Positions 29 through 5,640 of a stretch of 25,507 nt of DNA are shown here, one piece after another. The DNA comes from a virus. The position numbers and the translations under genes were made by a program. The notes beneath the pieces are model-generated. The model saw only the letters and a program-made list of their open reading frames with translations, was not told where the DNA came from and did not search any database. Each line of letters opens with the position of its first letter. The first letter of the stretch is position 1. The stretch lies in UHGV virus genome UHGV-0069400. The stretch is one strand, 5' to 3'.

Positions 29-370
29 ATGGGGGATGCGGCAGAACTTAAGGCTGTGCTTGAGGATGGCGGTATCGCCCGAGTGAAAAAGCAGGATTTG
101 GGAAGCGATGAAATTTCCACACACCTGGAAGCTGGCAAGCTCGTCACAAAGTTGGCTCTCGACTGGCAGAACCGCATTAAATTTACACTGGACCATAACT
201 TCAGCCTTACCAGCGTCAAATTTGCGGATGAATTGCTTGAGCAGAACTCTGATATTGATAGTGAAGATGTTGCGCAGCGACTGGACGCAGATTTCTTCCT
301 GTTAACCAGTGAAATTTCGTGCCTGGTTGATGCTCTGGTAAATGCCCTGGGCGGAGAGGCTAAGCAGTGA
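29..370 (+). CDS. Hypothetical protein, possibly 5'-truncated by the window edge
   Basis: ORF of 113 codons from the first ATG; the frame is open back to nt 2, so the true start may lie upstream of the window. Its TGA stop overlaps the GTG start of the next gene (GTGA). No recognisable motif. Confidence 0.4.
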
Positions 371-3300
371 AAGAGCTGTGCTATGGATCTGTTTGCAGTG
401 GAATTGAAGCCGCGAGTATTGCCTGGGAACCGTTGGGTATGCGTCCGGCGTGGTTTGCTGAAATCGAGCCTTTTCCATCTGCCGTTCTTGCGCTCCGCTG
501 GCCCCATGTCGCCAACCTTGGCGACATGACAAAACTTGCCAAAAAAGTCTTGGCTGGGGAAATCGAATCCCCTGACGTGCTCGTCGGGGGAACACCATGT
601 TTTACCGCGGGGCATATGGTTCTTTGTAAAAATGGTTATAAACCAATAGAAGATGTTTGCCCTGGCGATTACGTAGTCAGTCATCTCGGGCGGTTACAAC
701 AAGTAAAAAGAGTTGGTTCAAAAATAGCTAATACGGGGTTACTTAATGCCGTTGGGCAGCCTTTAGGTATAAGAACAACCAATGACCATCCCTTCCTGGC
801 GGTTCGGTGGAAAGCCCAAAACACCCGGAAAAATGGCACATATTTTAAGAGAGAGTTGTTGTCTGAACCGGAATGGCGAGCAGCATGTGATATGCCGGGA
901 TATCAATGGTGTGCTCTAACTAATTTCAATATTGCATCTCCAGATATTTGTTCTCGGTTCTTGTCTGAAGAACAGGCTATGTATCTTGCGGGCGCTTATG
1001 TTGGCGATGGATATATTAGGAGATGGAGAGGTAAATCTAAGAAGGCGGTTGTTTTTGGCATAAATTGCCAGAAATTGAGAAAGTTTCATTGCCGCATACC
1101 AGAAAACATATTTTCCGTGGCAAGCGAAATCCGAGGGAGCATCAAAGTAACCTTGAATGATACGTGTTATGCCAATTGGCTTAATGAACATTTTGGCGAG
1201 TTAAGCCATGCTAAGCGTATCCCTGCATGGGTGATGTCGCATCCATTGCGTCATGTGTTTTTACAAGGCTATCTTGATACTGATGGGACACCAAGTGGTA
1301 AAGCGGGATTTAGAATTAATAGTGTTAGTCCTGCGCTTGCTTGGGGCGTTGCGGAGTTGTCACAGACTTGTGGTTATGTTTCTTCGGTCAGCTTTATTGA
1401 AGTTGAGCCCAAAAAAGTGATCGAGGAGCGCGTGGTAAATCAACGGAATTATTATCAGGTAACAATCTGCCCGCAGAAATTGTCACGTAAATCAAGATTG
1501 GCTCATGGAATGCTTTTACGAACAGTCAAAGAGTTTAAATCGGTAGGCCTAGATACTGTATACAACATAGAAGTCGAAGGTGATCATTCCTATATCCTCA
1601 ATGGTGCGGTGGTCCATAACTGTCAGGCATTCAGTATCGCTGGATTACGTGGCGGGCTTGATGATGAGCGTGGCGCGCTAACTTTAAAGTATGTGGAGCT
1701 TGCAAATGCAATTGACGACAAACGGGCTGAGTCATTTCTCAAACCAGCCGTTATCGTCTGGGAAAATGTCCCAGGAGTCTTGTCATCGGCAGATAACGCC
1801 TTCGGGTGTTTCCTTGCCGGATTGGCTGGAGAAGATGCGCCATTTGAACCAGGTGATCGACCTGAATCAGGAAAAAGTAACGCGTTCTGGCGGTGGGATG
1901 GCAAAACCGGTTGCCATGCTCCAAAGTGGCCGCAGTGTGGTTGTATTTATGGACCGCAGCGAAAGGTGGCCTGGAGAATCCTTGATGCCCAATACTTCGG
2001 AGTGGCACAACGACGCCGACGCGTGTTTGTTGTCGCAAGTGCTCGAACAGACCTCGATCCCGCAACGGTACTTTTTGAGTTCGAAGGCGTGCGCCGGGAT
2101 ATTGCGCCGAGCCGAAAAAAGAAGGAAATCGCTTCCGCCATTATTGCAAATGGCGCTGCAATCAGTGGCGAAAGCCTAAATCCATGCCTACACGCTGACA
2201 TGCCACCCGGTATGAAATCGACGAAAGCCGTAAACGCTTTCAGGATGGCAGCATTTGGGGAATATATTGACGATGAAACCGCATCGACAGTAAAGGCAAG
2301 AGATTTTAAAGATGCCACTGACCTTGCCGTTTTTAGCAGCACAGGAGCAGGTTTTTGGTCAGAAGGGCATGGTACATTGCGGGCACGTGAGCAAGAAAGC
2401 CATGAGCATCTTGTTACATTGGCTTTTCCTGAGCGTATGAGCGGTACACAACATGCTGCAACTAAGAATACTTCACCATCTCTAATGGCTAAAAGTCCAA
2501 CAGCTGTTTGCTATGAAGTAAGAAACGCAGAAGTAGCTGTCCGCCGTCTTACCCCTGTCGAATGTGAAAGGCTGCAAGGTTTTCCTGATGGACATACGTT
2601 GATCCCGACGGAAAAGCGTAAAAAAGTTAATTCAGATGAACTGGCATATCTTCGCAATCACTATCCAGATTTAAGCGAAGAAGAGGCCGCGATGCTTGCA
2701 GCTGACGGACCGCGTTACAAAGCGATCGGCAATAGTATGGCAATACCAGTAATGCGCTGGATTGGCGATCGGATTACTAAGGCCGTATGTCGGCAGAAAG
2801 AAAGAAGTGAAACAAAAGAGCGAAAAGTTAAACCAGCGGCAGAATTCGAGCGGTCCATATTCAAATGGGCTGGTGGAAAATTTGGTGTTCTGGAACAAAT
2901 CTTTCGCTATTTGCCAGAAGGGAAGCGCCTGATTGAACCTTTTGTTGGTGGCGGAGCTGTCTTCATGAATGCCGGATACCAGGAAAATCTGCTAAATGAT
3001 GTGAATGCTGACCTGATTAACTTTTACAAGACTCTGCAACGCGAGGCGAATTCACTTATCACTCTGGCACATTGTTTCTTCCAGGACTACAACACACAGG
3101 AAGGATACCTGGCAGTACGGAATGCGTTTAACAAACAAGTCTATGATGATTTACATCGCGCAGCGGCGTTTTTGTTCCTGAACCGACATTGTTTTAACGG
3201 ATTGACGCGTTACAACCAGGCCGGTGAGTTCAATGTCGGTTATGGGAAGTATAAAACTCCGTATTTCCCATTGCAGGAGATGGAAGCCTTCCTTGGTGCG

Positions 3301-3654
3301 GAAGGGCGTTCTGAGTTTGTATGTGGTGATTTTGCTGCGGTGATTGAAGCTGCCGGAGAAGGAGATGTCATCTTTTGCGATCCGCCGTATGAACCGCTCC
3401 CAAATACAGAGGGATTCACGAACTATTCCGGTCATGACTTTAAGTTTGAAGAGCAAAAACGCCTGGTGTCTCTGTTGACGGATGCTCATCGCCGAGGTGC
3501 AAAGGTTCTCATTACTAACAGTGGCGCGCCAAACATCAGAGAACTTTATCAGGACAGTGGCTTCAGAGTGGAACCTCTTTTTGCCAGACGTTCTGTGTCT
3601 TGTAAGGGGGACACTCGAGGTGTTGCTCATGACGTTATAGCGATATTGCTCTAA
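367..3654 (+). CDS. dmt: Bifunctional DNA methyltransferase: N-terminal C5-cytosine MTase (interrupted by an intein) fused to a C-terminal Dam-like N6-adenine MTase
   Basis: 1095-codon ORF, GTG start. C5-MTase motifs: motif [12 protein letters not shown], motif IV split as GGTP / intein / CQAFSIAG, then [40 protein letters not shown]-terminal Dam-like domain: [18 protein letters not shown]. Excising the intein leaves 754 aa. The symbol is assigned by analogy with the P1 bifunctional methyltransferase and is from memory. Confidence 0.8.
598..1620 (+). mobile_element. Intein (341 codons) with LAGLIDADG homing-endonuclease domain, inserted in C5-MTase motif IV
   Basis: Starts with Cys ([20 protein letters not shown], block A-like) directly after GGTP. 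Block B TTNDHPF; two LAGLIDADG motifs ([22 protein letters not shown]); blocks [23 protein letters not shown], ending His-Asn followed by +1 Cys (CQAFSIAG). In-frame joining restores [12 protein letters not shown]. The segment looks AT-richer than the flanks by eye. Confidence 0.85.
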
Positions 3655-3674
3655 TAAATTTATTAGTGTAATAT
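3645..3674 (+). promoter_or_regulatory. C1-type operator pair overlapping a sigma70-like promoter
   Basis: ATTGCTCTAATAAATTT at 3645-3661 is a perfect match to the operator consensus and overlaps the methyltransferase stop codon. An inverted, overlapping second site AAATTTATTAGTGTAAT lies at 3656-3672 (2 mismatches). TTGCTC (3646-3651), 17-nt spacer, TAATAT (3669-3674) forms a -35/-10 pair. Confidence 0.6.
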
Positions 3675-3838
3675 CGCCTCAATGAATCGTGATTTATAGA
3701 GCGATTTAGCTGTTAGCCGCGACAGGCGCGGCGGCAAGTATGGCGGGGTAGTGACTCCTTCCCCCTCATGACGCCGAGTTGCCAGGTTGACCATACACCT
3801 AAGTGGCAACACCGAAGTGCGTTACGAGCTTCCAGTTT

Positions 3839-3864
3839 GCCCATCTTCGGGTGGGCGTTTTTTT
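3839..3864 (+). terminator. Rho-independent terminator
   Basis: 7-bp stem GCCCATC/GGTGGGC (one G-U wobble) with a TTCG tetraloop, followed by G and seven T. Confidence 0.65.
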
Positions 3865-4329
3865 CAGGGTTTTCGTCATGGTTAGCGACTTTGCGGCGGT
3901 TTAGAAACTGACCATTAAAGTAAATGCAAACGATGATCTGATGATGGTAGCGGCCTAAGAAGCCAGACGCCACGGGGTATGAGTCGTCCCCCGTCAAAAA
4001 ATCGACCGCAGAGTGTCCCCGTCTGTGTATTAGGGAACGGGGAGGCACAACAGGTAAGGGCGCTGGTGTGATTAACCAGATGAACGAGAAGGGGCCATCT
4101 GTTGGTCAGCGTCCTTTCCTGTTGCGTCTTCTTTTCAGCGTAACAGCGGTGCTTAACAGCACTTTGGGTACAGTTCCACGAATTTACGGGTATATCCCGT
4201 CATGCTGAAAGCGCTAATCACGCTGGAAGCCAGGGTTATGCATCCCCTGTTACCGAATTGCAGCCAGGGCGCGGTGCGCCGAAAAGCATACGGAGGTGGA
4301 AGCCCTCGCCGGAGACGTACCCGGCAAGT

Positions 4330-4405
4330 GATGGTGTAGCTCAGCGGTTAGAGCGGTTGACTGTTAATCAACGGGTCGATGGTTCAAATCCATCCACCAT
4401 CGCCA
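4330..4405 (+). tRNA. tRNA-Asn (anticodon GTT)
   Basis: 76-nt cloverleaf folded by hand: acceptor GATGGTG/CACCATC, D-arm GCTC-AGCGGTTA-GAGC, anticodon arm GTTGA-CTGTTAA-TCAAC, T-arm GATGG-TTCAAAT-CCATC, discriminator G, encoded CCA. Confidence 0.9.
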
Positions 4406-4407
4406 AT

Positions 4408-4483
4408 GCCGGTTTAGCTCAGTTGGTAGAGCGCCTGCCTTGTAAGCAGGATGTCAGCGGTTCGAGTCCGTTAACCGGCACCA
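4408..4483 (+). tRNA. tRNA-Thr (anticodon TGT)
   Basis: 76-nt cloverleaf: acceptor GCCGGTT/AACCGGC, D-arm GCTC-AGTTGGTA-GAGC, anticodon arm CCTGC-CTTGTAA-GCAGG, T-arm AGCGG-TTCGAGT-CCGTT, encoded CCA. Starts 2 nt after tRNA-Asn. Confidence 0.9.
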
Positions 4484-4491
4484 ACACAACA

Positions 4492-4565
4492 GGTAAGGGT
4501 ATTTTGCGACGTCGGAGATCGCCGTGCTTGGCAGAGGGTTCGAATCCCTACGAAGTACCCTTACC
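4492..4565 (+). ncRNA. tRNA-like element lacking a canonical anticodon arm (tRNA remnant or minimal tRNA-like RNA)
   Basis: 74 nt closed by a perfect 8-bp stem GGTAAGGG/CCCTTACC. Contains a D-arm-like hairpin GCGA-CGTCGGAGA-TCGC and a T-arm-like hairpin AGGG-TTCGAAT-CCCT, but no 5-7-5 anticodon arm, and 8 unpaired nt between the T-stem and the 3' acceptor strand. Starts 8 nt after tRNA-Thr. Confidence 0.45.
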
Positions 4566-4711
4566 GTTGTGATGAAGTGCAGCTCTTAGAAGCAACCAGA
4601 AGATAAGCATCTGGCTTCACAACATAAACCGCAGGAACGACCAATAAACGGTAGTCCGTATGGAGAACACCCCGTTGAGGAAGAGGCCTGGCCGGAACCG
4701 TAACCGGCACT

Positions 4712-4803
4712 ACAACGTTGAGAACACTGGCGTAACGGGGTCATATCCCAATCTACGAATAAATGTTGCGTTGCAGCGTGACAACCAGTGTTCTCAACAT
4801 TGT
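4712..4803 (+). repeat. Structured repeat unit 1: 19-bp inverted-repeat stem enclosing a conserved 25-nt core
   Basis: Arms ACAACGTTGAGAACACTGG (4712-4730) and CCAGTGTTCTCAACATTGT (4785-4803), one mismatch. Inner stem CGTA/TACG and conserved core GTAACGGGGTCATATCCCAATCTAC (4732-4756). Conserved GGTGAATGC follows at 4804-4812. Confidence 0.6.
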
Positions 4804-4996
4804 GGTGAATGCACAGGCTGATGTGCCGCAACTACAGTAGTGCGCGCTTTGCGGGGCTTGCTACAACCCTGTGTCGGAGTTCAGCACCGACCATCACAGT
4901 TTGATTCTCTGGCATGAGCATAACGCTGAAATAAGTCCAGTCTGGTGCGGCCCGATCACCCGCCGTTAGCTCCACGAAACGGAGCACGTAACAGGT

Positions 4997-5056
4997 AAGA
5001 GCATTCTCCTGTAACGGGTTCATATCCCAATCTACAGGTCCACCAAGAATGCTCTT
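4997..5056 (+). repeat. Structured repeat unit 2: second copy of the conserved core with different but still complementary stems
   Basis: Arms AAGAGCATTCT (4997-5007) and AGAATGCTCTT (5046-5056). Inner stem CCTGTA/TACAGG. Core GTAACGGGTTCATATCCCAATCTAC (5011-5035), 24 of 25 identical to unit 1. GGTGAATGC at 5065-5073. Confidence 0.6.
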
Positions 5057-5214
5057 TCCGTTGCGGTGAATGCGGCTAAGCGCACGCGGGGAAATGGTTA
5101 TATCTGTCCATTATTTCTCCTTGTTTCCACGTCCACGGTGGATAACCAGCCAAAGGACACCGGGAGGCACCCGGCACCGCAACCTTATTTCCCAACCAGT
5201 AATGAGGTTAATAA

Positions 5215-5640
5215 ATGCTCGGCATTCTCAAAAAGAAATTCCGCAAAGCGGCTGGCGGAGTCAAGAAGATGGAAAACCGTGATGCGGTGGAAGCGACTGT
5301 CTGGGGCGCATATTCCATTGCATACTCTGACGGCACCTGCGATGCGAAAGAAATTGCAGTATTGGAAAAAACCATTGCAGCACTTCCTGCCTTTGCGCCG
5401 TTCTCCGGTGAAATTGCCCAGATGAGCGCCAATATTCGCGCTCAATATGAAGCCTCGCCGCGCCGAGCGAATGCCCAGGCTTTACGTGAACTGGCTGACG
5501 TGTCTGGAACTAATGATGCGGTAGATGTTCTGTGCCTATGCATTGATATTGCTGACCAGGATGGCATTGGGGCAGAAGAGCAGGAGCAATTGAAGAAAAT
5601 TGCCCAGGCTCTTCAATTGCCACTGGAACAGTATATCTGA
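5215..5640 (+). CDS. tciA: TerB-like protein (tellurite-resistance TerB family; TciA-like)
   Basis: 141 codons. GAGG 7 nt upstream of the ATG. C-terminal VLCLCIDIADQDGIGAEEQEQLKKIAQALQL matches the TerB-type pattern. Position next to tRNAs and the helicase matches my recollection of the P1 tci cluster. Confidence 0.6.
   Translation: MLGILKKKFRKAAGGVKKMENRDAVEATVWGAYSIAYSDGTCDAKEIAVLEKTIAALPAFAPFSGEIAQMSANIRAQYEASPRRANAQALRELADVSGTNDAVDVLCLCIDIADQDGIGAEEQEQLKKIAQALQLPLEQYI

Follow-up and report, generated by a model that had tools for sequence, protein, structure and literature searches.

Hairpins with constant arms and variable apical parts lie between the RNA units of the ban operon leader in a P1-like phage

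Four hairpins in the ban leader

The virus genome UHGV-0069400 was analysed as one stretch of 25,507 nucleotides (nt; hereafter the window, whose coordinates are used throughout), and its bases 3600-5300 are 97.7% identical to positions 68622-70318 of phage P1 (AF234172); other P1-like phages match this region likewise. When the P1 annotation is transferred from AF234172, the noncoding island of the window corresponds to the leader of the ban operon, which is about 1.5 kb long, repressed by C1 and read from the + strand. In P1, the region runs from the P1ban/P2ban promoters and the operator Op72 at the dmt end, through a dicF-like region and the genes for tRNA-Asn and tRNA-Thr, to tciABC, trnI and ban. 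Here we describe a family of RNA hairpins, termed hairpin A, of which this leader contains four copies (M1 to M4). The order of the elements is promoter and operator, dicF-like RNA with its terminator, tag-like RNA, M1, a P1-specific spacer, tRNA-Asn and tRNA-Thr in the first half, followed in the second half by M2, a mini domain B, a spacer, M3, domain B3, another spacer, M4, domain B4 and tciA. The promoters and all of the RNA elements discussed below are on the + strand.

The preliminary description of this DNA, made from its letters alone, had pointed to a repeated 15-mer, and the copies are present as described: CACAACAGGTAAGGG occurs exactly at 4046-4060 and 4485-4499, and a third copy, CGTAACAGGTAAGAG, at 4987-5001, which is 80% conserved, includes the partial copy AACAGGTAAGAG that had been seen at 4990-5001. 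With up to three mismatches allowed, the window holds five matches against 0.43 expected, and none of 100 shuffles reaches five; the motif is not a product of chance but a recognition sequence held in common, as had been suggested, or a structural one. One of the five matches is a reverse-complement arm on the minus strand, at 4112-4126, which identifies the 15-mer as one half of an inverted repeat. Each copy of the 15-mer forms the 5' basal arm of a + strand hairpin of 60-100 nt, and its partner, the 3' arm C[CT]CTT[AT]CCGTTG[TC]G, is located 50-80 nt downstream, a pairing on which the preliminary description of the motif had not remarked. The consensus of hairpin A is a 5' arm CACAAC-A-GGUAAGRGCAUUG and a 3' arm CAGUGCYCUUWCC-GUUGYG, with a bulged A, usually a U.U mismatch, and a variable apical part of 35-75 nt, which we call the cargo.

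The four copies are M1 (4046-4126), with the 15-mer as its 5' arm (4046-4060) and CAGCGTCCTTTCCTGTTGCG as its 3' arm; M2 (4485-4570); M3 (4708-4807), detected also as an inverted repeat (I1, 23 nt, 91%), whose scaffold has diverged to CACTACAACGTTGAGAACACTGG and CCAGTGTTCTCAACATTGTGGTG and is still paired through compensatory changes; and M4 (4987-5066). All fold far better than shuffled sequence (z -5.76, -4.88, -6.19 and -4.73 for M1 to M4, respectively), with no shuffle of 200 folding as well. A covariance model built from 42 family members scores M1 at 46.4 bits (E 2e-11), M2 at 58.2, M3 at 44.6 and M4 at 62.6 (E 6e-16); across the whole window it recovers only these four (45-63 bits), the next best match scoring 11 bits, and the + strand scores exceed those of the minus strand by 10-36 bits. 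For hairpins A, neither the window nor 15 lambdoid loci gave a match to any Rfam 15 family, whether at the gathering threshold or with E allowed to rise to 10. The 15-mer family consists of RNA hairpins of the + strand, positioned between the RNA units of one repressor-controlled transcript, and the island is built from related modules, as the preliminary description had proposed.

The cargos of M3 and M4 share a 25-nt core (4732-4756 in M3, 5011-5035 in M4). The idea that the island arose by repeated duplication holds for this pair only; the family is not a duplication local to P1 and is shared with lambda, lambdoid prophages and an N4-like phage. The palindrome ACGGG-TATAT-CCCGT at 4186-4200 is present, and its likeness to the M3 and M4 cores is real: ACGGG(N)T(N)ATATCCC occurs at 4186-4198, 4735-4749 and 5014-5028, three occurrences against 0.002 expected for a pattern defined post hoc. 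Its fold energy is not unusual (z -0.28), and its invariance in relatives means that it yields no evidence from covariation.

M2 is the tRNA-like element of which the 15-mer had been said to form the 5' end, and this description is apt. Its cargo is a tRNA-elbow-like element composed of an inner 7-bp stem, the 5-bp hairpin GCGAC-GUCGGAG-AUCGC, whose 7-nt loop contains GG, and the T-arm AGGG-UUCGAAU-CCCU, the last being the sole canonical tRNA feature. Three different scaffolds have conserved this type of cargo, whose inner 7-bp stem covaries among them, and homologues are present in the lambdoid scaffolds of loci L024 and L064. The element is not recognised as a tRNA: ARAGORN calls only Asn, Thr and Met(CAT) in the window, no RF00005 match was obtained at 4485-4570 even at E up to 10, and there is no anticodon arm.

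Hairpin A in other phages

Hairpin A is widespread outside P1. The pattern ACAGGTAAGRG-N35-65-YCTTWCCGTTG has matches in at least 120 viral contigs, most of which are 30-55 kb long and not of P1 size. The elements of the family span 62-118 nt. Their arms have a mean pairwise identity of 0.906, compared with 0.499 for the cargos and 0.486 for shuffled cargos, and the 67 distinct cargos fall into 39 unrelated types. Most cargos fold ordinarily (mean z -0.48, with 10% of the 67 below -2), and a T-arm-like hairpin is found in 10 of them against 0.06 expected. In an alignment of 42 sequences, 94.2% of the cells are paired, as opposed to 36-61% in slid controls, and 8 of the 19 pairs show changes on both sides, a number reached by none of 500 shuffles; much of the stem is fixed by the search pattern, so the sources of this covariation are the positions that the pattern does not cover, along with M1, M3 and the P7 variant. 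A U.U mismatch occupies one position in 35 of the 42 sequences, and G.U pairs are frequent. The helix is kept through multiple compensatory changes both in M3 and in a variant from the N4-like virulent phage St11Ph5.

The scaffold is common to P1-like phages, lambda, lambdoid prophages and an N4-like virulent phage, and its genuine hosts in a one-genome-per-species collection are Enterobacterales. Matches in Pseudomonas, the Bacillus group, Bacteroidota and other taxa were rejected: all show a 70-nt hairpin identical to that of lambda, on contigs of low coverage that in some cases are about 48.5 kb long, and its presence in unrelated phyla is most simply explained by contamination of the assemblies with lambda control DNA. 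The assemblies concerned include Oceanobacillus, Shewanella and Algoriphagus (loci L224, L231, L233, L242, L249, L253, L261 and others). A variant of the 3' arm together with its downstream junction is present in 628 of 5,426 complete E. coli genomes; none of the 25 matches listed from these 628 genomes coincides with an annotated feature, and the K-12 prophage DLP12 contains no copy of hairpin A. The records of lambda, P1 and St11Ph5 that were inspected likewise have no annotation for the hairpin, and no account of the motif or the tag peptides discussed below turned up in the papers searched. The finding is more general than the preliminary description proposed, and its mechanism is something we infer.

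In lambdoids, hairpin A lies between antiterminator Q (PF03589) and holin S (PF05106), on the same strand and usually immediately 3' of the tR' terminator. In lambda itself, it occupies 44,788-44,866, directly after tR' and 7 nt past the end of the 6S RNA, and extends to arms of about 28 nt; no other duplex in the late leader reaches 20 bp. At each of the 7 loci with neighbouring tRNAs, the hairpins and the tRNAs share one orientation, and in P1 and the lambdoids hairpins A also follow the direction of the transcription unit. Directly upstream there is a terminator, the 3' end of a tRNA or a small hairpin, and directly downstream a tRNA or a domain B. One such small hairpin, GCTCC-ACGAAAC-GGAGC, adjoins M4 in the window (4969-4985); in the table of upstream contexts, it precedes hairpin A in many lambdoid contigs and is common to 25-32 non-P1 loci.

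Among P1 relatives, the differences are located at the modules and take the form of cargo exchange, insertion and deletion at the hairpins. On the 3' side of tRNA-Thr, P7 and vB_EcoM-Ro157c2YLVW carry a different cargo in the same scaffold and JL22 has both cargos in tandem, with a 167-bp insertion at the 3' arm of M2 that bears the second hairpin. In SJ46, the stretch between the 25-nt cores of M3 and M4 is deleted exactly, and M4 of Ro157c2YLVW (locus L002) lacks only the small GGGUUCAUAUCCC hairpin, which is the ACGGG(N)T(N)ATATCCC mini-hairpin (at about 2440). In P7 and D6, a replacement begins after M3, and the M4 region gives way to a tRNA-Ser-like gene and another variant of the scaffold. 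ARAGORN identifies this gene as an 87-nt tRNA-Ser(TGA) at 2831-2917 of the P7 locus (L005) and 2607-2693 of the D6 locus (L003), at the site of the M3-M4 spacer of P1; it is followed by a hairpin A variant whose 75-nt cargo contains the sequence that follows hairpin A in lambda, TTAAGCGAATGCCGGAAGCAGAACCGGATCACCAAATG.

The RNA units between the hairpins

Downstream of hairpin A, the strand GUUG-YRNUG that follows the 3' arm is complementary to CANYR-CAAC 58-218 nt further on; a near-perfect complement exists in 58 of 110 cases, compared with 2 of 110 shuffles. The resulting closing helix covaries (TGGTG/CACCA, TGATG/CATCA, TAGTG/CACTA, CGGTG/CACCG and TGCTG/CAGCA) and encloses a cloverleaf-shaped multi-hairpin domain, domain B, which typically has a 5' hairpin GCGCA-GGCUGA-UGCGC and a 3' hairpin GCCGG-AGAUCAGCA-CCGGC. 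Some phages have a true tRNA, Arg-UCU, at this position. The same GUUGYG strand serves both in the base of hairpin A (CACAAC/GUUGYG) and in the helix that closes domain B, so that only one of the two can form at a time; minimum free energy (MFE) folding chooses the B helix for M4 with B4 and for lambda, and the full A stem for M3 with B3.

In the leader, a mini domain precedes domains B3 and B4. The mini domain B2 (4565-4625), delineated by folding, is closed by GTTGTG../..CACAAC and has an inner hairpin CCAGA-AGATAAGCA-TCTGG, and its pairs GTTGTGATG/CTTCACAAC recur in relatives. Domain B3 (4799-4900), supported by its MFE structure and by the family-wide covariation of the closing helix, is closed by ATTGTGGTG/CATCACAGT; within it, GCACA-GGCTGA-TGTGC forms a D-like hairpin and GTCGG-AGTTCAGCA-CCGAC a T-like one. 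Domain B4 (5060-5183; fold z -2.98), closed by GTTGCGGTG/CACCGCAAC, is directly upstream of tciA (5215-5640), whose product belongs to the TerB family according to a Pfam match. B4 aligns with positions 31-147 of the 206 in the STnc100 model (RF02076) at 41.9 bits (E 4e-7; gathering score 47), and, judged from this alignment, it is related to STnc100 as a partial relative that scores below the gathering threshold. A recent preprint (Zhu, Shabalina and Storz, bioRxiv 10.64898/2026.05.13.724894) relates STnc100 to the prophage small RNA (sRNA) PasD. It reports many STnc100 matches on either side of PasA, PasC and PasD, and names TerB as one of the genes whose proximity to PasA and PasC is conserved in lambdoid prophages.

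Immediately ahead of M1 lies a module (3867-4043) resembling the tag-encoding part of SsrA, the transfer-messenger RNA (tmRNA). Its 5' part is conserved (GGGTTTTCGTCA..GCGACTTTGCGG..TTTAGAAACTGACCA) and precedes a frame at 3926-3958, GCA AAC GAT GAT CTG ATG ATG GTA GCG GCC TAA, which reads ANDDLMMVAA* and is preceded by UAAAU. Upstream of the frame, no in-frame ATG, GTG or TTG follows the in-frame TAG at 3902-3904, and the stop codon of the frame is in a hairpin loop of the consensus structure. The frame thus has the properties of a tmRNA tag: an Ala resume codon, no start codon, a C-terminal xAA and a stop in a helix-5-like hairpin. The module ends in two ACGGGG/CCCCGT hairpins, H1 (3972-3994) and H2 (4016-4043). 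Such hairpins had been counted among the related repeats of the island; they do exist, but they belong to this separate tag-RNA module and stand outside the repeat family. Of the 14 ACGGGG sites in the window, six lie within 3972-4740. The folding energy of H1 and H2 is not significant (z 0.21), and both stems covary in relatives; over the whole module, 12 of the 19 predicted pairs show changes on both sides.

The relatives encode ANDDLMMAAA, ANDDLMLMAA, ANDDLMLAAA, ANDDVVLMAA, ANDDVVLIAA and ANDDAVLMAA; the changes at Ala, Leu and Val codons are third-position or otherwise synonymous, and the amino-acid changes are conservative. Rfam yields only weak matches at the module, to tmRNA_permuted and beta_tmRNA (24.1 bits with a gathering score of 47, and 14.1 bits with a gathering score of 84). 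A search for long-range pairing and runs of ARAGORN at lowered thresholds revealed no tRNA-like domain, and ARAGORN remained silent on the module at its default and at ps95, ps90 and ps85, calling it only at ps80, among eight calls with unrelated tags. The tag RNA is present in 719 phage records, which include virulent Felixounavirus, where it stands inside the tRNA array, Vi01-like phages and St11Ph5; it is unannotated in nearly all of the records listed, and in none is an RNA gene annotated over it. When loci are retrieved with nothing but the tag pattern, about 20 of those from enterobacterial phages contain co-oriented hairpins A according to the hairpin model. In St11Ph5 (locus L278), a canonical hairpin A (62 bits) comes next on the 3' side of the tag RNA, and a scaffold variant that retains the U.U mismatch lies on its 5' side. 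The tag RNA, the canonical hairpin A and an odd tRNA-Ala(cgc) fall in about 1.9 kb of unannotated sequence (1400-3290), which also holds at least four more canonical T-arm sequences (GGTTCGAGTCC, GGGGGTTCGAATCCCTC, GGGTTCGATTCCCTCC and GGTGGTTCGATTCCATCC), none annotated as a tRNA.

The remaining features of the leader follow the P1 annotation. Transcription starts at the P2ban/P1ban promoters, which lie with the divalent C1 operator Op72 at the dmt end (3629-3677; inverted repeat 3640-3677); a preprint on the P1vir transcriptome does not resolve the leader. The dicF-like region (3769-3865), a misc_feature in P1, ends in an intrinsic terminator recognisable in the sequence as a hairpin at 3839-3856 and a T run at 3858-3864. 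Since this terminator (3839-3865) is inside the ban leader, transcripts must read through it if they are to include the tRNAs and ban. A terminated dicF-like RNA in this position parallels the lambdoid order of promoter, short terminated RNA (6S/StxS) and hairpin A. Between M1 and the tRNAs, a P1-specific structured spacer (4127-4329), near-invariant in 23 relatives (fold z -1.05), contains the palindrome at 4186-4200 and the hairpin GCCGGAGACGTACCCGGC at 4308-4325. The genes for tRNA-Asn (GTT; 4330-4405) and tRNA-Thr (TGT; 4408-4483) were called by ARAGORN and score 74.5 and 74.9 bits, respectively, with Rfam. Upstream of the leader, the dmt open reading frame (ORF) at 367-3654 encodes 1095 amino acids, as in Ro157c2YLVW, compared with 754 in P1 (66412-68676), which makes the methyltransferase of the window a longer variant.

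Processing, cargo display or exchange

What would such hairpins do between the units of a transcript? The reading that we favour, with about an even chance, is that hairpins A serve as RNase III-type processing or punctuation sites in a polycistronic array of noncoding RNAs. Once C1 repression is lifted, Pban would yield one long transcript, and host RNase III would cut the double-stranded stems of at least 20 bp and thereby separate the RNA units. Cleavage would leave half-stems that protect the new ends and would free GUUGYGGUG to pair with the downstream CACCRCAAC, closing the next domain B. The cleavage, the enzyme and this structural switch are what we infer. By its title, the paper of Daniels et al. 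(1988, Virology 167:568; cited in PMC7547250) concerns sites at which RNase III processes the Q-dependent late transcript of lambda. In its geometry, hairpin A offers the roughly two turns of duplex (at least 20 bp, interruptions allowed) expected of RNase III substrates, with 19 modelled pairs plus extensions, and it occupies the position expected of them, on the transcribed strand between functional units, both in the ban leader and in the lambdoid leader from Q to the holin gene. The hairpin A of lambda, as the only long duplex in the late leader, presumably corresponds to the late-leader sites of 1988.

Several observations weigh against a role as plain processing sites. RNase III needs duplex geometry and not a particular sequence, so the roughly 91% identity of the arms, together with the U.U mismatch and bulged A that are conserved across unrelated phages, points to a sequence-specific partner or to homogenisation driven by recombination. 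The enrichment of T-arm hairpins in the cargos (10 of 67 against 0.06) and the retention of one cargo type in different scaffolds suggest that some hairpins are perhaps functional RNAs themselves. Moreover, SJ46 lacks intact M3 and M4 hairpins, which indicates that individual copies are dispensable, and hairpin A, at its base, cannot coexist with the helix that closes domain B, with an MFE choice that differs from unit to unit.

The first alternative is that the hairpins are themselves the functional products, forming a scaffold for the display of cargo in which the stem binds a host factor or stabilises the molecule and the apical part is active; a tRNA-elbow mimic, for example, could be a decoy for tRNA-targeting defence nucleases or for enzymes that process or modify tRNA. 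This would account for arms that are 90.6% identical around cargos that are hardly more alike (49.9%) than shuffled ones (48.6%) and comprise 39 unrelated types among 67, for the excess of T-arm-like hairpins in 10 of these, for the M2 cargo type with its inner-stem covariation in three scaffolds, for the different cargos at one locus in close relatives (P1-type versus P7-type, and both in JL22), and for the presence of the hairpin in virulent phages as well. We nevertheless regard it as rather unlikely, since most cargos fold ordinarily and are without any tRNA-like feature, no match to the YrlA or tRNA models was obtained, and no target or partner was identified.

Less probable still is a role at the level of DNA, in which the arms are short blocks of homology that act as handles for cassette exchange and are conserved by recombination. 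The breakpoints of relatives do fall at the modules (the SJ46 deletion, the 167-bp insertion of JL22 and the replacement in P7 and D6), and the same scaffold occurs in otherwise unrelated phage families. However, a handle does not require an inverted repeat, and recombination leaves unexplained the compensatory changes, the G.U-biased strand asymmetry, the conserved mismatch and bulge, and the constant co-orientation with transcription. A role as recombination handle or as display scaffold may also be compatible with RNA processing.

The possibility that the conservation reflects protein genes is very remote. The GenBank annotation of P1 places two ORFs on the minus strand over 4454-5023, plp (a putative lipoprotein) and upl, and the 63-amino-acid upl ORF is intact in the window. 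Nevertheless, plp has a TTG start, overlaps the 3' end of tRNA-Thr and is interrupted in the window by an in-frame stop (81 amino acids, compared with 125 in P1); it is colinear in only eight relatives, in relatives plp and upl are both broken by indels at the hairpins, a Pfam search assigned neither to a family, and both are unannotated in P7, D6 and Ro157c2YLVW. They are probably not genes, and the earlier view of the island as noncoding probably holds despite this annotation. Integron attC-like sites for the recombination of single-stranded DNA are the least credible of the alternatives: the ..CACAAC and GTTGTG.. ends, conserved bulge and mismatch, variable centre and length of 62-118 nt give a superficial likeness, but (G)CACAAC / GTTGTGG does not fit RYYYAAC/GTTRRRY, the stem is conserved in sequence and not in structure alone, the supposed cassettes are RNAs, and no integron-type integrase stands beside the hairpins in the gene tables of P1, P7, D6, JL22, SJ46, Ro157c2YLVW, lambda, Vi01, adrianh or St11Ph5. 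CRISPR-like, retron and miniature inverted-repeat transposable element readings were dropped for lack of an associated enzyme and in view of the RNA-type strand asymmetry and the constant co-orientation with transcription.

In a wider and more speculative reading, which we regard as less likely than not, enterobacterial phages share a modular, recombining array of noncoding RNA cassettes in which the hairpins would punctuate tRNAs, tRNA-shaped sRNAs of the STnc100/PasD type and a start-less SsrA-like tag RNA, and which would constitute a previously unrecognised system for hijacking translation or ribosome rescue, or a decoy against tRNA-directed defence. The scaffold and the tag RNA both occur in P1-like phage-plasmids, in lambda and other lambdoids and in St11Ph5, and the tag RNA also in FelixO1-like and Vi01-like phages. 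Constant arms around unrelated, exchanged cargo are the signature of a cassette system and suggest that small RNAs are traded in the manner of protein morons. If hairpins A are processing sites, then a single transcript from one repressor-controlled promoter can supply the tRNAs and sRNAs as well as the ban mRNA, and successive hairpins mark unannotated phage RNA genes between them; the tag RNA that travels with them would, if translated, bear on the manipulation of trans-translation by phages. No temperate coliphages have been studied more than P1 and lambda, yet the hairpin A family is absent from Rfam 15.

The layout of M2 is like that of YrlA (RF02553) and Y RNAs, with a long bulged basal stem, a tRNA-like top, a canonical T-loop, a GG-containing hairpin and no anticodon arm. 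Unlike YrlA, however, M2 is not matched by RF02553, the single match of which (19.9 bits; gathering score 69) lies over tRNA-Asn and tRNA-Thr, and most cargos of the family are not tRNA-like; no Rsr/Ro gene was seen near M2, the adjacent genes being dmt and tciA. The tag module shares with tmRNA (RF04321 and RF01850) a start-less frame that begins with GCA and reads ANDD...xAA*, the UAAAU ahead of it and a stop codon in a loop, but it has neither a tRNA-like domain nor pseudoknots and scores far below the gathering thresholds. B4 resembles STnc100 and PasD in the alignment to model positions 31-147 and in the nearby TerB-family gene (tciA in P1), but it lacks the 5' 30 and 3' 59 positions of the model, including any 3' terminal part, and the Pas-sRNA preprint does not describe a hairpin upstream of the STnc100-like domain. 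Processing hairpins in phage transcripts are already known; we could find no description of one that stays constant as a scaffold, carries hypervariable cargo and punctuates tRNA-like RNAs. Like the phage RNase III hairpins at the R sites of T7 and at the N-leader and sib of lambda, hairpins A are long interrupted duplexes, with mismatches and bulges, on the transcribed strand between units; unlike these sites, they combine a stem whose sequence is conserved across phages with a hypervariable apical part, and they share their 3' arm with the closing helix of the next domain.

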